Assembly (NCBI GenBank): GCA_017463815.1 | Contig: JAFTOK010000169.1 | Location: 1 to 49,776, forward strand | Origin: Clostridia bacterium | Lineage (GTDB): Bacteria; Bacillota; Clostridia; Oscillospirales; CAG-272 | DNA length: 49,776 nucleotides | Direction: 5' to 3' | Shown: positions 2,414 to 40,919 of the stretch, in pieces | Position numbering within the stretch: position 1 is the stretch's first letter | Layout of the letters: the number at the start of each line of letters is the position of its first letter | The notes under the pieces: model-generated | What the model saw: the letters and a program-made list of their open reading frames with translations, nothing else | Database searches by the model: none | What the model was told of the DNA's origin: nothing | Program-made: the position numbers and the translations under genes

Positions 2414-4572
2414 AGTGATAAAAACAAACGTAGTCTTTCTATTTCCGCTTCTGCCTTTGCCTTTTCTCTTGCCGCCGCCTTACCCAGGTGCGCGGCAATT
2501 TTTTTGCGGTTTTTCAAAATTTCCCCCGCAGAGGCAACGAGGTCTTTCGCCCGCACTCCGCGAAAAATCGCACACCCGCGCAAACGGGCAGTGGCAAAAA
2601 ACGCCGCCGCTTTGGCATCGCGCGAAACGGCTATAACGGGGCACGCTTCCGCCACGGCAAAGACCGCGCCGTGCAGGCGCATAGAAAGCGTAAACTGCGC
2701 CCCTTTCGCAAGCGCACGGGCACGCGGGGCATCACGCACGCTCGCCTCATATCGCGTCCAAGGCAGACGAGCGGCAAATTTGCGGCATATTTTTTCATCC
2801 TCACGCCCGTGGAGTGCTGCAAAAACGGGGATAAGCCCATATTGCCGCCTCATCGCGCAGAAAAAGCGCAGAAGCTCCCCTTCCTCACGGGCGCTCACCT
2901 CTTTCGGGAACACGGCGTAGTATTTTTCGCCCAAAAACAGCGCTTTTTCCGCCCTTTCTCCCGCAAAAACAAGGTCGCCCGAAAGAAATACATCCTCGCT
3001 CTCTGTAAGCCATACGGCAAGCTCGCGCGAAAAATCTTCACGCATAGAAATATAATCCGCCGCAGAGAGCGCTTTTTTCACACGCGTCAGATTTTTTCGG
3101 TGCAAAAGCGGGCCAATGCCATTTGCCGAAAGCGCCACACGGCACCCGTGCGCGCGGGCAAGTCGGGCAACAGCCGCGTAATACAGGAGCGATGCCGTGC
3201 TGGTTCTATCCTGAAAAATGTTCCCGCCGCCGAAGATGAGCACATCTGCCCGCGCCATAGCTTTTCCCACAGCCGCGGGCGAAAAACGCGGCACGGCGAG
3301 GGTGTCCCGCCGTTTTGCCGTATCGTCGGGGCGAGTGCTCATAACGCAAATCTCGCCCACGGCTTCGCTCCCCGCAAGCGCACGGCAAAGCACCGAAAGC
3401 ATAGCTTCGTCGCCCACGTTGCCGTAGCCGTAGTAGCCGCATAGGAGCACGCGTTTTCCGCGCGTGGCAAGCAACTTCGCATAGTTCTTTTCGTAAATAG
3501 CCGCCATTTTCCGCACGGAATAGTGCTCGCAAACAAAAGCTCTGCCATATTCTGCGGCGGCTTTTCGTTCGCTTTCGCTAAGTGAGAGCGCGTGCAAAAC
3601 GGCGGTTTTCACGTTTTCCGCCGTGGTGGGGGCAAAACCGCGGCAGCAGAAGTTGGTGCGCCGCGCCGCCTCCGCCACTTCCGCGCCGAAAAGACCGAGC
3701 GTGCCCGCGTTTCCAGCCACCACCGTGGGCTTACCGCACGCAAGCGCCTCCATAGCGGAGCGCGATGGCGCTACGAAAACGTCGCACGCGGCAATGTATG
3801 CCTCCGCCCGCGAGGTTCCGCCGGGCAAAAGCACGATTTCTTCGCCTAAGCGTGAGTTTACCTCCCGCGCCCGCGCAGAAAGCTCCGCGCGCTTTTCCCC
3901 CTCGCCCACAAGCACTATTTTTATATCGCGGTGTTCGCAAAACAGCGCCTCCGCGCTTTCCAAAAGCGCTTTTGCCGGCAAAAAACTGTCGTGCGAGAGC
4001 CTACCGAGGTACATTACCACCCTTTTCCCCGCCAAACCGAGGTGTGCGCGCACTTCTTCCCCCGAAACATCGGGGCAAAAACGCGCCGTGTCTATGCCGT
4101 TCGGCACGAGGGTTATACGCTCGCGAGGATAGGCGTATTCGCGCGCGAGCTTTTCCGCTATATCCTCGCTCACGGCGAAAATATGCTCGCCCCAATCCAT
4201 AACGCGTGCGCACGCACACTCCGCGTCGTACACCCCGTGCGCCGTGGTGACGAACACAAAGCCAAAACGCCTTTTCAAAAGCGAGGCTATAACCGCAGGT
4301 ATGCGCGCGTGCGCGTGAACAATATCAAACCGCTCCCGCTCGCAAAGCCGCGAAAGAACGGCGAGCGATTTTGCCACGTGCGCGGGGTTTTTGCTGTGGA
4401 GCGGCGCAAAAATATGGCGCACCCCGCCCCTCTCAAGCTCGCCAACAAATGTGCCGCCGTTCGACGCCACGAAAACCGTGTGCCCGAGGCGCGCAAGCCC
4501 GCGCGAAAGCTCCAGCACGTGCGTTTCCGCCCCGCCAAGCCCCATAGACATAGCAAGCATAAGTATTTTCAT
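2410..4572 (-). CDS. Fusion protein: GT4 glycosyltransferase (N-terminal) plus polysaccharide pyruvyl transferase CsaB-like domain (C-terminal)
   Basis: The N-terminus MKILMLAMSMGLGGAETHVLEL is typical of GT4. The C-terminal half RVLLCGYYGYGNVGDEAMLSVL...GGGNIFQD is typical of CsaB pyruvyl transferases. I chose the ATG at 4572, 5 nt after GGAGGG. Confidence 0.75.
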   Translation of the reverse strand: MKILMLAMSMGLGGAETHVLELSRGLARLGHTVFVASNGGTFVGELERGGVRHIFAPLHSKNPAHVAKSLAVLSRLCERERFDIVHAHARIPAVIASLLKRRFGFVFVTTAHGVYDAECACARVMDWGEHIFAVSEDIAEKLAREYAYPRERITLVPNGIDTARFCPDVSGEEVRAHLGLAGKRVVMYLGRLSHDSFLPAKALLESAEALFCEHRDIKIVLVGEGEKRAELSARAREVNSRLGEEIVLLPGGTSRAEAYIAACDVFVAPSRSAMEALACGKPTVVAGNAGTLGLFGAEVAEAARRTNFCCRGFAPTTAENVKTAVLHALSLSESERKAAAEYGRAFVCEHYSVRKMAAIYEKNYAKLLATRGKRVLLCGYYGYGNVGDEAMLSVLCRALAGSEAVGEICVMSTRPDDTAKRRDTLAVPRFSPAAVGKAMARADVLIFGGGNIFQDRTSTASLLYYAAVARLARAHGCRVALSANGIGPLLHRKNLTRVKKALSAADYISMREDFSRELAVWLTESEDVFLSGDLVFAGERAEKALFLGEKYYAVFPKEVSAREEGELLRFFCAMRRQYGLIPVFAALHGREDEKICRKFAARLPWTRYEASVRDAPRARALAKGAQFTLSMRLHGAVFAVAEACPVIAVSRDAKAAAFFATARLRGCAIFRGVRAKDLVASAGEILKNRKKIAAHLGKAAAREKAKAEAEIERLRLFLSL

Positions 4573-6759: not shown

Positions 6760-6788
6760 ATTATACAATTTTTTCGCCGTAATGTCAA
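6760..6788 (-). promoter_or_regulatory. Consensus sigma-A-type promoter for the transketolase operon
   Basis: The minus strand reads TTGACA, a 17-nt spacer (ttacggcgaaaaaattg), then TATAAT. Confidence 0.6.
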
Positions 6789-6809
6789 TATAACACGGCA
6801 ATTTAGCGA

Positions 6810-6846
6810 AAAAGAAAAACACCGAAAGCGGTTTTCGGTGTTTTTG
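6810..6846. terminator. Bidirectional rho-independent terminator that ends the lipoprotein module
   Basis: The stem ACACCGAAA (6819-6827) pairs with TTTCGGTGT (6833-6841). An A-run lies upstream and a T-run downstream. Confidence 0.65.
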
Positions 6847-6906
6847 CAGAGGCAAATGATATTTTCCGTAGACATTTGTAGGGGCGACGTCCCGCGCTCC
6901 CCGCCC

Positions 6907-7563
6907 CTATCTTGTTCCAAACATTTTATCGAGTTCGGCCACAGCGCTCTCTGCCGTTTCCGCAGAAAGCAAGCGGCTTATAAATGTGTCCTTTCCCTCT
7001 GTGGGGTAGCCCGAACAGCTGATTGTAACACACATATCACCGTAAATCTTTTCAATATAGGTGAGTTTTCCGCCCATATAACTGTATCTTGCCCCACCAA
7101 CCATAATGTACGCGCGTTCGGGCAGATTTTCGAGCGCAGAAAGGTTTTGCGCGTTTTCGGGCATTTCCACGGATACATAGCCGTATTTATCCTCTTCTGG
7201 TGTGTAGTAATGCTCCACGCAAAGAATAAAGGCATATTCCCTTTCATCTGTCAAGCCGTATGAATATTCGTCGAGAGATACCGTGGTTTCGCCTAATACG
7301 CCCCCATTGAACATATCGAACTTTCCAAGCTCGGCAATCTCCTCGTATTTCACGAAACTATCGAAAAGCTCCGTATTTTTGCAAAATTTCTTGTATGAGG
7401 AATAATCGTTTATCGAAAGCGTAACGGGGTCTACAATAATACCTTCCGGCGAGGTGTAATCGGGGGTGTTCGTCAAAACCGTATAGGCATAATTTTCCCC
7501 GCCGCACGACACGGCGCATAGCAAAACCGCAATTATTAAAAACATCGGTATAATTTTTTTCAT
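6907..7563 (-). CDS. Hypothetical lipoprotein
   Basis: The signal peptide MKKIIPMFLIIAVLLCAVSCG has a lipobox. The ATG at 7563 lies 7 nt after GAGG. I recognise no domain. Confidence 0.65.
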   Translation of the reverse strand: MKKIIPMFLIIAVLLCAVSCGGENYAYTVLTNTPDYTSPEGIIVDPVTLSINDYSSYKKFCKNTELFDSFVKYEEIAELGKFDMFNGGVLGETTVSLDEYSYGLTDEREYAFILCVEHYYTPEEDKYGYVSVEMPENAQNLSALENLPERAYIMVGGARYSYMGGKLTYIEKIYGDMCVTISCSGYPTEGKDTFISRLLSAETAESAVAELDKMFGTR

Positions 7564-7580
7564 TTCCAAACCTCACAAAA

Positions 7581-8231
7581 TCACGCAAAGCTAAGTTCAG
7601 CAAAAAAATCTTCGCCAAGATATTCTGCGTTTGCCCTTATAATAACAAGCATATCTTCATAAATCAAAAACACGTATATTTGCTCGCTGTCGCTCATTTC
7701 GCACACCAAAGCGGAAATTTGATTTTCGGAAACGTTTATTTCCTTTTCATATACGTTTTTGTAATTTTCGTAAGATTTAAAATTGTCAATATTCGGTGCG
7801 TCGGGCGCGATTTTCTTTATAAATTCCGAAGCAGAGAGCCCTTTCGCCTCGTCGCCGTTCAAATACGTCGTCCGAATAATCACCTCGCCGCCACTGTTTA
7901 TGCAATAGAACCAAATCCACGGTCTGCCGTAAAGCTCGCTTTCAAGTAAGGTTATGTTACTATACCCCTCGCCGCGATTGCGCAGAGCAAGCGGTTCGCC
8001 GCTTAAATACGGGATTTTCAGCTTTGAAGTATCTTTCGCCATTTCAGAAATGAAGCCCGCAAACTCGCCCTCGTGCTTTTTCGCTTCTTCCTCTGTGAAG
8101 AAAGCGCGCAGTTCCTCTGCGTTTTCAAAGTCGTATGAATTATTTTCGGGCGGAGGACATATGGTGGGCTCACAAGCAGATATACCGAACACAAGCGCCA
8201 AAAACACGATTAAAGCTATTATCCTTTTCAT
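7581..8231 (-). CDS. Hypothetical lipoprotein
   Basis: The signal peptide MKRIIALIVFLALVFGISAC has a lipobox. The ATG at 8231 lies 7 nt after GGAGAG. I recognise no domain. Confidence 0.65.
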   Translation of the reverse strand: MKRIIALIVFLALVFGISACEPTICPPPENNSYDFENAEELRAFFTEEEAKKHEGEFAGFISEMAKDTSKLKIPYLSGEPLALRNRGEGYSNITLLESELYGRPWIWFYCINSGGEVIIRTTYLNGDEAKGLSASEFIKKIAPDAPNIDNFKSYENYKNVYEKEINVSENQISALVCEMSDSEQIYVFLIYEDMLVIIRANAEYLGEDFFAELSFA

Positions 8232-8282: not shown

Positions 8283-8445
8283 CAGCACCGTTTTTATGGG
8301 ACGTCGATGGCGGCCGCCCTACAAAAATATAGGCGCACAAAATGCGCGAAAACGGACATTTTTTTGTAAAATATATAAAATTTCGTAATTCACCCCTTTG
8401 GTCGCTCCGAATACACGGAAATATCAGCCAAATTTTGATACAAAG

Positions 8446-8492
8446 ACACCTCATCAGTCCCTTACGGGACAGCTTCCCCTCAAGGGGAAGCC
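8446..8492. repeat. Solo alpha arm of the nested-hairpin repeat family, in reverse orientation
   Basis: The reverse complement is GGCTTCCCC-TTG-AGGGGAAG CTG TCCC-GTAA-GGGA CTGATGAGGTGT. It differs at only 4 positions from the arm at 39687-39733. Two of those positions form a compensatory pair in hairpin 2. Confidence 0.7.
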
Positions 8493-15640: not shown

Positions 15641-16627
15641 ATGCCAGGACCAGGTGGTGGTGGACACGGCGGCGGCGGTCATCGCGGAGGTGGCGGTCAT
15701 CGCGGAGGTGGCGGTCACGGCGGCTTCGGTGGAGGACCGGGTGGTGGCGGACCGAGAGGCTTCGGTGGAGGACCGGGCGGCTTCGGCGGCGGCCCTCGCG
15801 GTTTCGGAGGAGGCCCGCACGGACCTCACGGACCTCACGGACCCCACGGAGGTTGGGGCTGGAGGCGCAGACCTCGCCATTACGGCGGCGGTGGTTGCCT
15901 CGGCTTTATGTTGATGCCCATTATCTTAATCGTATTTGTGGTAGTTATTGCGGCTTCCTCGCTCGGCAGCGCGTTCACTGCCGTTTCAAGCGGCGGTGAA
16001 GTTGCGTACAATGAAACCGCGTTCGGCGATTACGCAAACGATCAGTACGCTGTGGAATTTTCAGATTCCACAGCGTACGAGGATAACCTTATGCTCGTTT
16101 TCCTCGTAGAAGATGACGAATATTACGATTACTACTACATTTCGTGGAAAGGCGACCACATAAACGAAGATATAGTCGAGCTTTTCGGCAACGAATACAC
16201 GGCGTATGGCAAGGCAATCAATTCCAAGGTGAACTCTTCCTCTTATAAATACTCGCTCGATTCCGACCTTGCAAGCGTTATAAACGCTATGGGCGAAAAA
16301 GTAGCATCGCTCGAGCTAACAACCTCGTTCACCTGCAACGAAGAGCACGTTGGCACAAAAAAATCTCACCTTGTGAACAATACAAGCCTGCCGCTCACGG
16401 AAAGCACCGTAAACGCGGCTCTCGAAAAATTCACAGAGGACACGGGCATTCCCGTTGTTTTGGTCGTAGAGGATATCGATGATGTTTTCGAGCGTACGAT
16501 GCCCGTCGGCGCGATTTTCACCATTATTTTGCTTATCGCCATTGTCGCTCTCGCGATTTACCTCATAGTTCGCTCTGTAAAAAAGCGCAAACAGTACGGC
16601 GAAAATGACAATCAGTATTATAACTAA
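15641..16627 (+). CDS. Bitopic or two-TM membrane protein with an N-terminal Gly/His/Pro/Arg low-complexity repeat region
   Basis: The RBS is AAGGAGG. The N-terminus is MPGPGGGGHGGGGHRGGGGHRGGGGHGGFGGGPGGGGPRGFGGGPGGFGGGPRGFGGGPHGPHGPHGPHGGWGW. This is followed by a TM segment, a roughly 190-aa acidic Tyr-rich domain, a second TM segment and a basic tail. Confidence 0.75.
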   Translation: MPGPGGGGHGGGGHRGGGGHRGGGGHGGFGGGPGGGGPRGFGGGPGGFGGGPRGFGGGPHGPHGPHGPHGGWGWRRRPRHYGGGGCLGFMLMPIILIVFVVVIAASSLGSAFTAVSSGGEVAYNETAFGDYANDQYAVEFSDSTAYEDNLMLVFLVEDDEYYDYYYISWKGDHINEDIVELFGNEYTAYGKAINSKVNSSSYKYSLDSDLASVINAMGEKVASLELTTSFTCNEEHVGTKKSHLVNNTSLPLTESTVNAALEKFTEDTGIPVVLVVEDIDDVFERTMPVGAIFTIILLIAIVALAIYLIVRSVKKRKQYGENDNQYYN

Positions 16628-16664: not shown

Positions 16665-16670
16665 CTTAAT

Positions 16671-16759
16671 AACATAGGAAATTGCGCGCAGTTCGTGCGC
16701 AATTTTGCTTCTTCAAACAAAGTTTTCCTTATGCAAAAACGCCCGAAAATCGGGCGTTT
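16671..16759. repeat. Copy A of a roughly 90-nt structured intergenic module (see also 27331-27417)
   Basis: AACATAGGAAATTGCGCGC...GCGCAATT...AGTTTTCCTTATGCAAAAACGCCCGAAAATCGGGCGTTT aligns along its whole length with 27331-27417. Confidence 0.65.
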
Positions 16760-16783
16760 CAGACTGTCGAAAAAGTGATTTAA

Positions 16784-16919
16784 GCCTCTCACTCTGGGAG
16801 AGGTGGCACTGTCAGGTGACGGAGAGGGCTATGATAAAAACCTAAAATTGCATCAAAAGTTTATATTTTTGATGTTTGCCCTCTCACCGCTGCGCGGAGC
16901 TCCCCCATAGGGGGGAGCC
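16784..16919. repeat. Nested-hairpin inverted-repeat element, short copy with an alpha arm on the left and a beta arm on the right
   Basis: The left arm is CCTCTC-ACTCT-GGGAGAGG TGGCA..TGAC GGAGAGGGC. The AT-rich core contains the CATCAAAA..TTTTGATG hairpin. The right arm is GCCCTCTC A CCGC-TGC-GCGG AG CTCCCCC-ATAG-GGGGGAG. Confidence 0.65.
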
Positions 16920-16988
16920 GAAAGTTAGTTTATCGACACGCTAAAACGCCCGAAAATCGGGCGTTTTTTAGTTTAAGAAGTCAACTTT

Positions 16989-18341
16989 TTATTTTTCTTC
17001 TTTATCGAGCTTTTCAAAAAGCTTCTTATACGGCATAAGCATACCCTCGTTCATAGCGTTGCCCATCTTCGCCTTAATTTTCGGCGAGGAAAGGAGCACG
17101 CCCACGAGCTGCATCTTCAGCATTGTGCCGAGCTTCTTTTGCGGGAAGTCATACTGCCCGTGCGCCTTGTAGAACTTGTGGTCTGCCTTCATCATACCCT
17201 GCATAAGCCAGATGAGGTCGCGGAAAATTTTCATACCGCCCACGCCGTAGAAGTTCTGCGGCGGCACGTATTTGTGCTCTATGGCATAGGCAAGCGTTTT
17301 TGCCATACGGTCTATTTCCGCGTTCGGCTCTTTTTCGTCGGTTGCCACACCCGCAAGGAAGTTTGTGCCGACCTGTGCTCTGCCTTCCACTATCATCTGC
17401 AGGTTCTGCTCCGTGCTGTACGCACCGGAAACGAGGTAGCCCACGGGCGAGCCCATCGTAACCGTGCGGTGACCGTTACAGAACTGGCGGTCATCGTACA
17501 TTTTAAAGAGCGCACCCATAGAGTGGTCTTTAATCGTGAAAGCATACACCGTCGCCTGCGCTGTCTGTATGTCGTTTCGCAAAAACTCATCGAATTTATC
17601 GTTGTAGATACATTTGCCCGAAACCGCGCAGTTGAAGCACCCGAGGCAACCGCCCTTAAACGGATATTCGCGCAGGTTTACAACTCTTGTTTTAAGCGGA
17701 AATACCGCGCGGAAACGCGCTATCATAGCCGCGAGCTGCTCGTTATCTTCCTCGCAGTCTGTAACGATTACCACGTCGCCCTTCTTTTCTTCCGCGCCGC
17801 ATTCGGGAATTTCCACAGGGTTGTGTGCAGCGGGCACGGCATATGCCGTATACGGCTCGCAATATCCGTTTTGGGCGCTCCATACGGCGTATTCGAGGAA
17901 GTCGCACGCCTCTTTCTGCCCCTTTTCCGTGAGCAAATCGTCCATATCGGCGGAAAGGCCGCGCACGTATTTCATTCCCATATCCTTGCAGTTTTCTTCG
18001 ACGTATTTGTGCGCCGTTACGTCGTAGAAGTGCTTGGAGGTAGTGATTTGCGTGGCGTATTTTCCCGTGAGGTCCACGCCCGAAGCCTTAAGAAGCTCTA
18101 TGAATCTGTGGAGCTGGCTTGGCGCGATAAACGTATACACGGGGTAAGCGAAAAGGAGCATATCCGCTTTTTCAAGATATTTCACCACGGGCGAAAAATC
18201 GCGCTCCAAAGCTTTGATTTTCTTGCCGACGTGCAAAAATTCAAAAATATGCTCGGGATATTTTTTCTCCAGAAACTTTGCCGTCTGCAAAGTGACGCTG
18301 TATTCGCCTTTAGGGCTGCCGTTCAAAACCAAAATTTTCAT
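16989..18341 (-). CDS. Two-domain flavodoxin-like-fold NAD(P)H-dependent oxidoreductase (iron-sulfur flavoprotein-like)
   Basis: MKILVLNGSPKG...LLFAYPVYTF is an FMN-reductase fold. The second half carries GGCLGCFNCAVSGKC. The RBS is AAAGGAG. Confidence 0.7.
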   Translation of the reverse strand: MKILVLNGSPKGEYSVTLQTAKFLEKKYPEHIFEFLHVGKKIKALERDFSPVVKYLEKADMLLFAYPVYTFIAPSQLHRFIELLKASGVDLTGKYATQITTSKHFYDVTAHKYVEENCKDMGMKYVRGLSADMDDLLTEKGQKEACDFLEYAVWSAQNGYCEPYTAYAVPAAHNPVEIPECGAEEKKGDVVIVTDCEEDNEQLAAMIARFRAVFPLKTRVVNLREYPFKGGCLGCFNCAVSGKCIYNDKFDEFLRNDIQTAQATVYAFTIKDHSMGALFKMYDDRQFCNGHRTVTMGSPVGYLVSGAYSTEQNLQMIVEGRAQVGTNFLAGVATDEKEPNAEIDRMAKTLAYAIEHKYVPPQNFYGVGGMKIFRDLIWLMQGMMKADHKFYKAHGQYDFPQKKLGTMLKMQLVGVLLSSPKIKAKMGNAMNEGMLMPYKKLFEKLDKEEK

Positions 18342-39686: not shown

Positions 39687-39733
39687 GGCTTCCCCTAGAG
39701 GGGAAGCTGTCGCGAAAGCGACTGATGAGGTGT
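39687..39733 (+). repeat. Alpha arm of the nested-hairpin repeat family
   Basis: GGCTTCCCC-TAG-AGGGGAAG CTG TCGC-GAAA-GCGA CTGATGAGGTGT. It ends 1 nt (39734) before the stop codon of the 394-aa gene. Confidence 0.7.
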
Positions 39734-39734
39734 C

Positions 39735-40919
39735 TTATGAGTTTACACCAAAATAAATATTTTCTTTATCGACTAGCAAATCTAAAGGCTGATTATAAAG
39801 CCTATTAACCATATTTATATTATCTATAAAAGGCTCAGCAGAACTGTTTTCAAAAACAGAAATATATTCCATTGTACGTTCTGTACGCTTCTCTCCCAAA
39901 TCTGTTAGTTTATTTCCTTGTTCAATCAAATTTTCATCAATTTGAGATTTATTCACATATGGAATTTTTGCTACAATATTGCCAGCTGATTTGCTTACTT
40001 TTGCAACACCGCCAATAAAATGAGATTGTATGGATGATTTTGAATAAGTTTCTATTTGATTATAGCACTTTTTATAAAGTTCGCTATATGTCAGCTCAAA
40101 ATTTTCTATCTTTCTCGAAATCTGCGTCAAATATCCCTCATCAAAATTCTCAAGAAGCATTACACCTAAATATGCAGAAAATGCATATATGTATGATGCT
40201 AATTGATATTCTTTTAGTAAAGAAGATATTTCTTGCATTTTATTTTTCAAATCTTTATCTATATGAATTAAAGACTGCTTAACAAGTTTTTTATTTATAC
40301 GTTCTTGGTAGAATAAAATACTTGCTTCCGACTCTTGCATGATATCTAAAATTTTAATATAATTGCTATCTTTATACTGTTTATTAGACCAATTATATTT
40401 GTAATTATTTAATATATCAGAAAGCAACGAAAGATTAGCTTTCAAATTAGCTCGTTCTTTTTCTTCTAAAAATTCCAAAATTTCTTTCTGTGCTTCTCTT
40501 ATACTGTCAAGTTTTTGATTAACATTCATCAAAGCAACCGCCATAAAAAGCATTGTTGGGTCGCAAGCAAGCGGATTTAAACGAGCCTGCCCTCCGCCTA
40601 CCATACCGTCTTTATTTAAAACAGCGCCCAAATATGAATTTTCATACTTAAATTTAGCCAAACTACCGCCATTTGGCACAGTTACATAATACAACCCGCT
40701 TTTGGCTTTTCCTCTATTTATAATCGTTTGAACAGCCTGAGTTAATGGTTCAAAGGCAACTCCAAAAGACGAAAGTTCGGATAAAGGCAATTTTTTATAT
40801 TTGTCTAAATCCGTTTTTTCCAGCACCGCAGGAAGTGTAGGAAAAAACTCAATATTTGTCATAGCTTTAACGATATTTTCTTTTTCTAATATCAAAGATT
40901 TCTTGTTTTTTCCAAACAT
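39735..40919 (-). CDS. Hypothetical protein of 394 aa, an orphan with no domain I recognise
   Basis: It is a long clean ORF with the RBS GGAGAAAGAA-ATG. The mixed N-terminal region contains ...GLYYVTVPNGGSLAKFKYENSYLGAVLNKDGMVGGGQARLNP..., followed by a long predicted helical or coiled region. It has no TM segment and no Cys clusters. Confidence 0.75.
   Translation of the reverse strand: MFGKNKKSLILEKENIVKAMTNIEFFPTLPAVLEKTDLDKYKKLPLSELSSFGVAFEPLTQAVQTIINRGKAKSGLYYVTVPNGGSLAKFKYENSYLGAVLNKDGMVGGGQARLNPLACDPTMLFMAVALMNVNQKLDSIREAQKEILEFLEEKERANLKANLSLLSDILNNYKYNWSNKQYKDSNYIKILDIMQESEASILFYQERINKKLVKQSLIHIDKDLKNKMQEISSLLKEYQLASYIYAFSAYLGVMLLENFDEGYLTQISRKIENFELTYSELYKKCYNQIETYSKSSIQSHFIGGVAKVSKSAGNIVAKIPYVNKSQIDENLIEQGNKLTDLGEKRTERTMEYISVFENSSAEPFIDNINMVNRLYNQPLDLLVDKENIYFGVNS

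Follow-up and report, generated by a model that had tools for sequence, protein, structure and literature searches.

A probable miniature IS1182-type element between two copies of a terminator hairpin in a Clostridia genome

The window, by which we mean the whole 49,776-nt stretch of Clostridia DNA analysed here, belongs to a draft genome of 2.24 Mb in 259 contigs (G000, 78% complete) and contains at about 16.7 kb an intergenic region that separates two convergent genes, one at 15641-16627 on the plus strand and one at 16989-18341 on the minus strand, the latter encoding a flavodoxin/FMN-reductase-like protein of 450 aa. Within this region the 24-mer AAAACGCCCGAAAATCGGGCGTTT occurs at 16736-16759 and again, in direct orientation and with 0 mismatches, at 16943-16966; when the window was shuffled 100 times with preservation of dinucleotides, such 24-mer pairs numbered 0.00 on average. 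The two copies enclose 183 nt (16760-16942), inside which lies a core of nested hairpins at 16784-16919. A preliminary description of this DNA had reported both the perfect 24-nt duplication and the enclosed 183 nt with its core, and both were borne out. The features of the site, together with a second, uninterrupted site in the window, are the following.

16668 to 16992, plus strand: interrupted module of about 118 nt, with its 5' part reaching to 16759 and its 3' part starting at 16943 (alignment with other copies)
16736 to 16759, no strand assigned: left target copy, a palindromic terminator-like hairpin (exact 24-mer, fold, terminator scan)
16760 to 16942, plus strand: putative non-autonomous IS1182-type element (MITE), 183 nt (copies in the same-genus genome G005; boundaries from the flanking duplications)
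16760 to 16776, plus strand: left terminal inverted repeat CAGACTGTCGAAAAAGT (identity to ends of IS1182-family insertion sequences)
16784 to 16829, plus strand: alpha arm of the core, taken as cargo (architecture as in the arms upstream of 5/5 DUF559 genes of G000)
16830 to 16877, plus strand: AT-rich 48-nt spacer with a small hairpin, at the position of the gene in DUF559 cassettes (sequence, fold, cassette comparison)
16878 to 16919, plus strand: beta arm of the core, taken as cargo (architecture as in the arms downstream of DUF559 genes)
16929 to 16942, plus strand: right terminal inverted repeat TTTATCGACACGCT, a diverged copy of ...TTTTTCGACAGTCTG (conservation, complementarity)
16943 to 16966, no strand assigned: right target copy, the same hairpin (exact 24-mer, terminator scan)
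27326 to 27443, plus strand: uninterrupted module with a single hairpin, CGCCCGAATTCGGGCG, and no insert, representing the empty-site state (alignment with other copies)

The left copy of the 24-mer is made up of an A-tract, a 7-bp GC stem, an AAAA loop and a T-tract, and folds nearly end to end (-15.1 kcal/mol). It retains a T-tail for minus-strand transcription and gave a minus-strand match in the terminator scan, and the right copy retains the plus-strand T-tail, with a plus-strand match at 16943-16967. The duplicated unit could be 23 nt long instead of 24, with the A at 16943 as the last base of the element, because most of the related elements described below end in ...CT(C/G). When treated as a single strand, the 243-nt block gave a strong fold (z-score -9.9), as expected from nested inverted repeats, and an Rfam scan of the window returned nothing at gathering score and only sub-threshold noise on the module and the element.

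The interrupted module (TATAACATAGGAAATTGCGCGC...GTTTTCCTTATGCAAAAACGCCCGA..TCGGGCGTTTTATAGTTGACGAAGTCAACTTTTTTAT) is dispersed in G000, where we found six full copies (two on C135 and one each on C250, C79, C208 and C172) and four partial copies that comprise the 3' half only (C50, C41, C140 and C141). The hairpin is single in the nine other copies, with the 16.7-kb copy as the sole exception, and the empty state is therefore well defined: compared with empty copies, the 16.7-kb module is longer by 207 nt, which correspond to the 183 nt plus a second 24-nt palindrome. The uninterrupted paralogous site noticed in the preliminary description thus proved to be genuine and can now be assigned to a repeat family with at least 10 copies in this genome. 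Many copies are also present in the same-genus genomes G003, G004, G006 and G009, and in G004 the orthologous site, next to the orthologue of the flavodoxin-like gene (87% identical), has one hairpin and lacks the insert. Two scans of metagenome contigs, one with a right-flank pattern and one with the conserved 3' end of the neighbouring gene, revealed no empty allele at the exact locus, and an exact-protein look-up of the 450-aa neighbour had as its sole match a contig with the identical 361-nt spacer, that is, a filled site. The orthologous intergenic regions of G000 and G005 are too diverged for a clean empty-site comparison, except at the G005 copy L012 and its counterpart on C48, where the G000 side carries a single small hairpin. 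The module lies invariably just past another terminator, and its structured 5' part precedes two hairpins; it may be a small RNA gene or another MITE.

The enclosed 183 nt recur as a unit of their own. The same-genus genome G005 contains at least eight full copies with 81-92% identity, spanning exactly the equivalent of window positions 16757-16947, and four further copies that are cut by contig ends. The copies begin with CAGACTGTCGAAAAAAGT... and end with ...AGTTTATCGACACRCT(C), and 12 out of 12 left ends directly follow the T-tract of a hairpin that is different at each locus. The extent of these copies and their abutment to varying hairpins indicate that the approximately 24 nt on each side of the core belong to the unit. 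The earlier suggestion that the element had inserted together with about 24 nt per side, duplicating the hairpin, is supported by these data, as 16760-16942 is exactly the unit repeated in G005. The right end (16929-16942) is complementary to the left end over TGTCGA.AAA and is kept in all G005 copies as well as in the elements L044, L047 and L073. We found the full 183-nt unit only in G000 and G005. G000 has no intact copy besides 16760-16942; what remains of a right half is found at C51:794-858, and further hits to the element end do not exceed chance level. The 183 nt contain no ORF of their own and, in particular, no ORF for a DDE transposase (DUF772 + DDE_Tnp_1_6), and we therefore classify the unit as a MITE and not as an IS. 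At 92%, the identity of the window element to its best G005 copy, L011, exceeds that of the adjacent flavodoxin-like gene (81% between G000 and G005), which hints that the element has been exchanged more recently, or changes more slowly, than the host genes.

The core at 16784-16919 is composed of two unlike inverted arms with two hairpins each, separated by a short spacer, and is devoid of a gene. By eye, the order of the arms and their motifs (AGCCTCyC-loop-GrGAGG, a small hairpin and GACGGAGrG, followed by the complement) match the flanks of 5/5 DUF559 genes of G000, and arm-only matches were detected in 23 of 201 genomes of the taxonomic family. We take the core to be cargo, a gene-less version of the DUF559 arms. 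The five DUF559 genes, which encode Vsr-like nucleases, are located on C35, C98, C30 and C90 (two places); the stem sequences of their arms differ between cassettes and the architecture is constant. Two half-arms elsewhere in the window (8443-8492 and 39687-39736) match the C90 type.

The finding that all five DUF559 genes of G000 sit between arms built like 16784-16919 would be in line with an alternative in which the nested-hairpin repeat is moved by its own partner enzyme, such as a DUF559 Vsr-like nuclease, and causes the hairpin duplication itself. However, duplicated hairpins at the flanks and outer CAGACTGTCGA ends are both missing from all five cassettes, and the other gene-less nested-hairpin copies in G000 lack both features too. 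Moreover, as described below, hairpins are duplicated by elements that share these ends and have different interiors, one of them only 58 nt long, and we consider this alternative improbable. Since mobility appears to come from the outer approximately 24-nt ends, with the core as cargo, the locus is no proof that the nested-hairpin family moves alone. The preliminary description had taken the insertion as direct evidence for a mobile repeat family; this stands for the unit with its outer ends and does not extend to independent movement of the nested-hairpin family.

A search with the 18-nt element end identified 37 loci in species-representative genomes, about 20 of them from Clostridia/Oscillospiraceae. 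Most of these Clostridia/Oscillospiraceae loci abut a different hairpin, and they include MITEs with unrelated interiors and duplicated hairpins. Both ends could be located in 17 elements, namely the window copy, copies from G005 and elements retrieved via the 18-nt end from other Clostridia/Oscillospiraceae MAGs. When their 40-nt upstream flanks were aligned with the respective 45-nt downstream flanks, 14/17 elements showed locus-specific direct repeats, 16-39 nt long, right up against both ends of the element. Alignment scores were 32-68, whereas mismatched upstream/downstream pairs averaged 11.2 and never exceeded 22. All but one of the 14 repeats fold as hairpins, and in 12 cases the pairing extends to within approximately 1 nt of the repeat ends. 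Both sequence and length of the flanking hairpins vary between loci and match within a locus. The preliminary description had raised the questions of whether other copies are also flanked by duplicated hairpins and whether terminator stems are preferred as targets, and these counts answer both in the affirmative. The interiors of the elements with shared ends are mutually unrelated, which implies that hairpin duplication is a property of the ends, independent of the nested-hairpin core. Three of the 17 elements deviate: the left and right hairpins of L014, and likewise of L052, are not the same, which would need later recombination or a second insertion mode, and L045 has no duplication.

These comparisons also bear on an explanation without transposition, in which the hairpins are part of the repeat or arose by slippage or hairpin recombination, with the core lying between the copies by chance. 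The entire 231 nt do form one long imperfect palindrome, and the loop of the first hairpin of the module is flipped among copies (GAAAATC versus GATTTTC, GAATTC and GAAATC), which suggests that recombination occurs in such stems. Against this explanation, the two 24-mers match as direct repeats over 24/24 positions and as inverted repeats over only 21/24, the flanking hairpins are locus-specific and nevertheless match within each locus, and an identical arrangement is found around intact, transposase-bearing ISs (see below). We regard it as very improbable, and recombination between hairpins, offered in the preliminary description as an alternative, is unnecessary.

The ends of the element led to the IS1182 family. 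The left terminal inverted repeat CAGACTGTCGAAAAAGT is identical over 17/17 nt to the left end of L110, an intact 1587-bp IS1182-family IS (G240:C61) from the same taxonomic family as the window, and likewise over 17/17 nt to the right end of L086. L110 has the right end ...CTCGACAGTCTG and encodes a transposase of 494 aa without stops that scores 399 bits against NF033551 (cut-off 270 bits), with matches to PF05598 and PF13751 as well. The 21-nt hairpin TAGCACCCGTCAAGGGTGCTT stands on both sides of L110 as a perfect duplication. Directly duplicated flanking hairpins of 20 and 24 nt were also found at the full-length ISs L083 and L084, and the full-length ISs L086, L087 and L088 begin with CAG(A/T)CTGTCGAAAAA directly after a hairpin. 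In three of the full-length ISs for which both ends are available, the left and right hairpins differ, and here too later recombination or a second insertion mode would be needed. L052, which is 728 nt long and has the same two ends, encodes the last approximately 85 residues of an IS1182-family transposase, corresponding to positions 402-485 of 488 of NF033551 (E 6e-22; PF13751 E 6e-18); this internally deleted form with a transposase remnant is an intermediate between the small element and the IS. L111 is a decayed copy of 1268 bp. Two points speak against the end match: no more than 17 nt are shared, and the tip of the right end is diverged. Palindromic targets used without sequence specificity, as in other members of the IS1182 family, are what we observe for the present elements.

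Throughout the taxonomic family, the 15-nt end core is present in 26 of 301 genomes, with up to 42 occurrences in one genome, and the reversed 15-nt control yielded singletons only. IS1182-family transposases (NF033551) occur in 39 of the 301 genomes. The NF033551 search returned no IS1182 transposase in G000 (78% complete), G005 (85% complete), G004 or G003, and only a C-terminal transposase fragment in G009. Multi-copy ISs are often absent from draft assemblies. As no IS1182 transposase was seen in G000 or G005, the proposed trans-acting partner is deduced from other genera of the family.

IS1630 of Mycoplasma fermentans, a member of the IS30 family, targets and duplicates inverted repeats with junctions of 16-26 bp (Calcutt et al. 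1999, as reported in PMC3317919), and G000 contains an IS30-family gene; yet the end of the MITE is identical to IS1182-family ends instead, which makes an origin as a MITE of an IS1630-type element scarcely credible. The IS30-family candidates on contig C237 of G000 (TTGCAA...GTTGCAATAGT, with a frameshifted gene) and on C33 of G004 were rejected, as their ends are unrelated. The C237 element, at about 6770-7970 and outside the window, is flanked by an imperfect direct repeat of approximately 15 nt (AAGAGGTTATATTAT / AAGGAGATTATATTAT) that covers the start of the following gene together with a ribosome-binding site.

Another known mode of repeat dispersal is that of REP/REPIN-RAYT systems, in which repeats are mobilised by a Y1 (RAYT) transposase without target duplication. 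The long target duplications found here argue against this mode.

Collectively, at 16.7 kb an element has inserted and the palindrome has been duplicated, insertions of its relatives recur at many hairpins without a sequence consensus, and the end is identical to that of IS1182-family ISs, intact members of which show the same outcome, namely duplication of the whole palindrome. We conclude, with a probability of roughly 0.85, that 16760-16942 is an IS1182-family MITE with a nested-hairpin payload that was moved by a DDE transposase acting in trans onto the palindromic terminator of the module. In the mechanism that we propose, an IS1182-family DDE transposase (DUF772 + DDE_Tnp_1_6) would be supplied in trans and bind the retained terminal inverted repeats. 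The transposase would recognise the shape and not the sequence of the palindrome, and the target would probably be an extruded cruciform or folded single-stranded DNA. The two element ends would be joined at the two feet of the stem, which are 16-39 bp apart in linear DNA and adjacent when folded, and gap repair would then copy the entire palindrome to both sides, so that the length of the duplication equals that of the palindrome, 24 nt in the present case. This route would correspond to path 3b-6b of the IS1272 model in PMC5678879, where Fig 13 proposes, as path b, strand transfer at the 5' feet of the cruciform, which would duplicate the stem-loop. Insertion would do little harm because a terminator is left on each side; with the plus-strand T-tail kept on the right and the minus-strand T-tail kept on the left, termination is plausibly preserved in both directions, which fits a low-cost landing site.

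The best-studied points of comparison within the IS1182 family are IS1272 and TnSha1 of staphylococci, which target terminator hairpins without sequence specificity (PMC4923244) and delete or replace the target hairpin, leaving no duplication (PMC4923244, PMC5678879). They resemble the present system in the transposase family of its autonomous relatives (NF033551, DUF772 + DDE_Tnp_1_6) and in targeting hairpins by shape. They differ from it in that here the whole palindrome (16-39 nt) is duplicated, the transposase is absent and a foreign repeat is carried as cargo. As IS1272 and TnSha1 remove the hairpin, the choice of feet for attack appears to vary within the IS1182 family. Siguier et al. 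(2015), as cited by PMC4923244 and PMC5678879, stated that palindromes are the targets of some IS1182 members. IS1630 likewise inserts at inverted repeats, terminators among them, and leaves them duplicated over a variable length; unlike the present element, it has a transposase of another family and unrelated ends, and it is autonomous and not miniature. The preliminary description had called the 24-nt target duplication unusually long: it is unusual, and precedents exist in IS1630 and, as a proposal, in path b of PMC5678879.

Like classical MITEs (Correia, RUP, MITEAba12 and others), which are mostly intergenic, the present element is short, non-coding, bounded by terminal inverted repeats and presumably mobilised in trans. 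In those MITEs the transposase fixes the duplication at a short length of 2-9 bp, whereas the duplication length of the present element is dictated by the palindrome of the target. The arms of the DUF559 cassettes have the same two-arm architecture as the core 16784-16919; unlike the cassettes, which have neither such ends nor hairpin duplications, the core is gene-less and lies inside IS1182-type ends.

The kind of element described here is already known, as IS1182 members target palindromes and IS1630 duplicates them, and what is new is this member; the way of transposing is likewise known and little-documented, and the 16.7-kb locus is a clear new example of it. The hairpin-rich block between two identical terminators can be explained as an ordinary product of transposition, and similar blocks in Clostridia genomes may be recognised by CAGACTGTCGAAAAA immediately after a hairpin. 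Three repeat systems, namely the module, the MITE ends and the nested-hairpin cargo, are layered at this one site. For annotation, it follows that many of the duplicated terminators and long intergenic 'inverted repeats' in these genomes lie outside the element proper and represent target duplications. The loci provide natural evidence that some IS1182-family transposases duplicate the whole palindromic target, which supports the published and unproven cruciform-foot model. This natural collection of insertions, with duplications whose length follows that of the palindrome, is of use as a data set for that model. Retention of a terminator on both sides would amount to a low-cost landing strategy.

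A broader proposal, to which we give somewhat less than an even chance, is that gut and rumen Clostridia harbour a large undescribed superfamily of MITEs that share one IS1182-type end of approximately 18 nt, carry arbitrary cargo and leave duplications whose length is set by the palindrome. If so, the transposase would act at the feet of extruded cruciforms and the natural insertions collected here would constitute the first broad data set for the proposed pathway. They would also connect two orphan systems of repeats, in that nested-hairpin repeats of the DUF559 type would travel between IS1182 ends.

Some further variants with these ends were observed. L044, L047 and the window element represent three MITE lineages that have the same IS1182-type ends and arms of their own host's type. 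L044 (CANQVZ010000025.1, about 2690-3040) is flanked by a 39-nt promoter-like, non-palindromic duplication (TTGACA...TAGTATAAT), with an extra 24 nt separating the right end from the repeat, and is thus an exception to the palindrome rule. L060 (CAKTXZ010000029.1) and L071 (CACWHX010000001.1) are bare left-right end pairs of 32 nt (CAGACTGTCGAAAAAAGTTTTTCGACAGTCTG) with nothing in between; both are perfect palindromes located beside hairpins, and the L060 pair is nested in a larger element.
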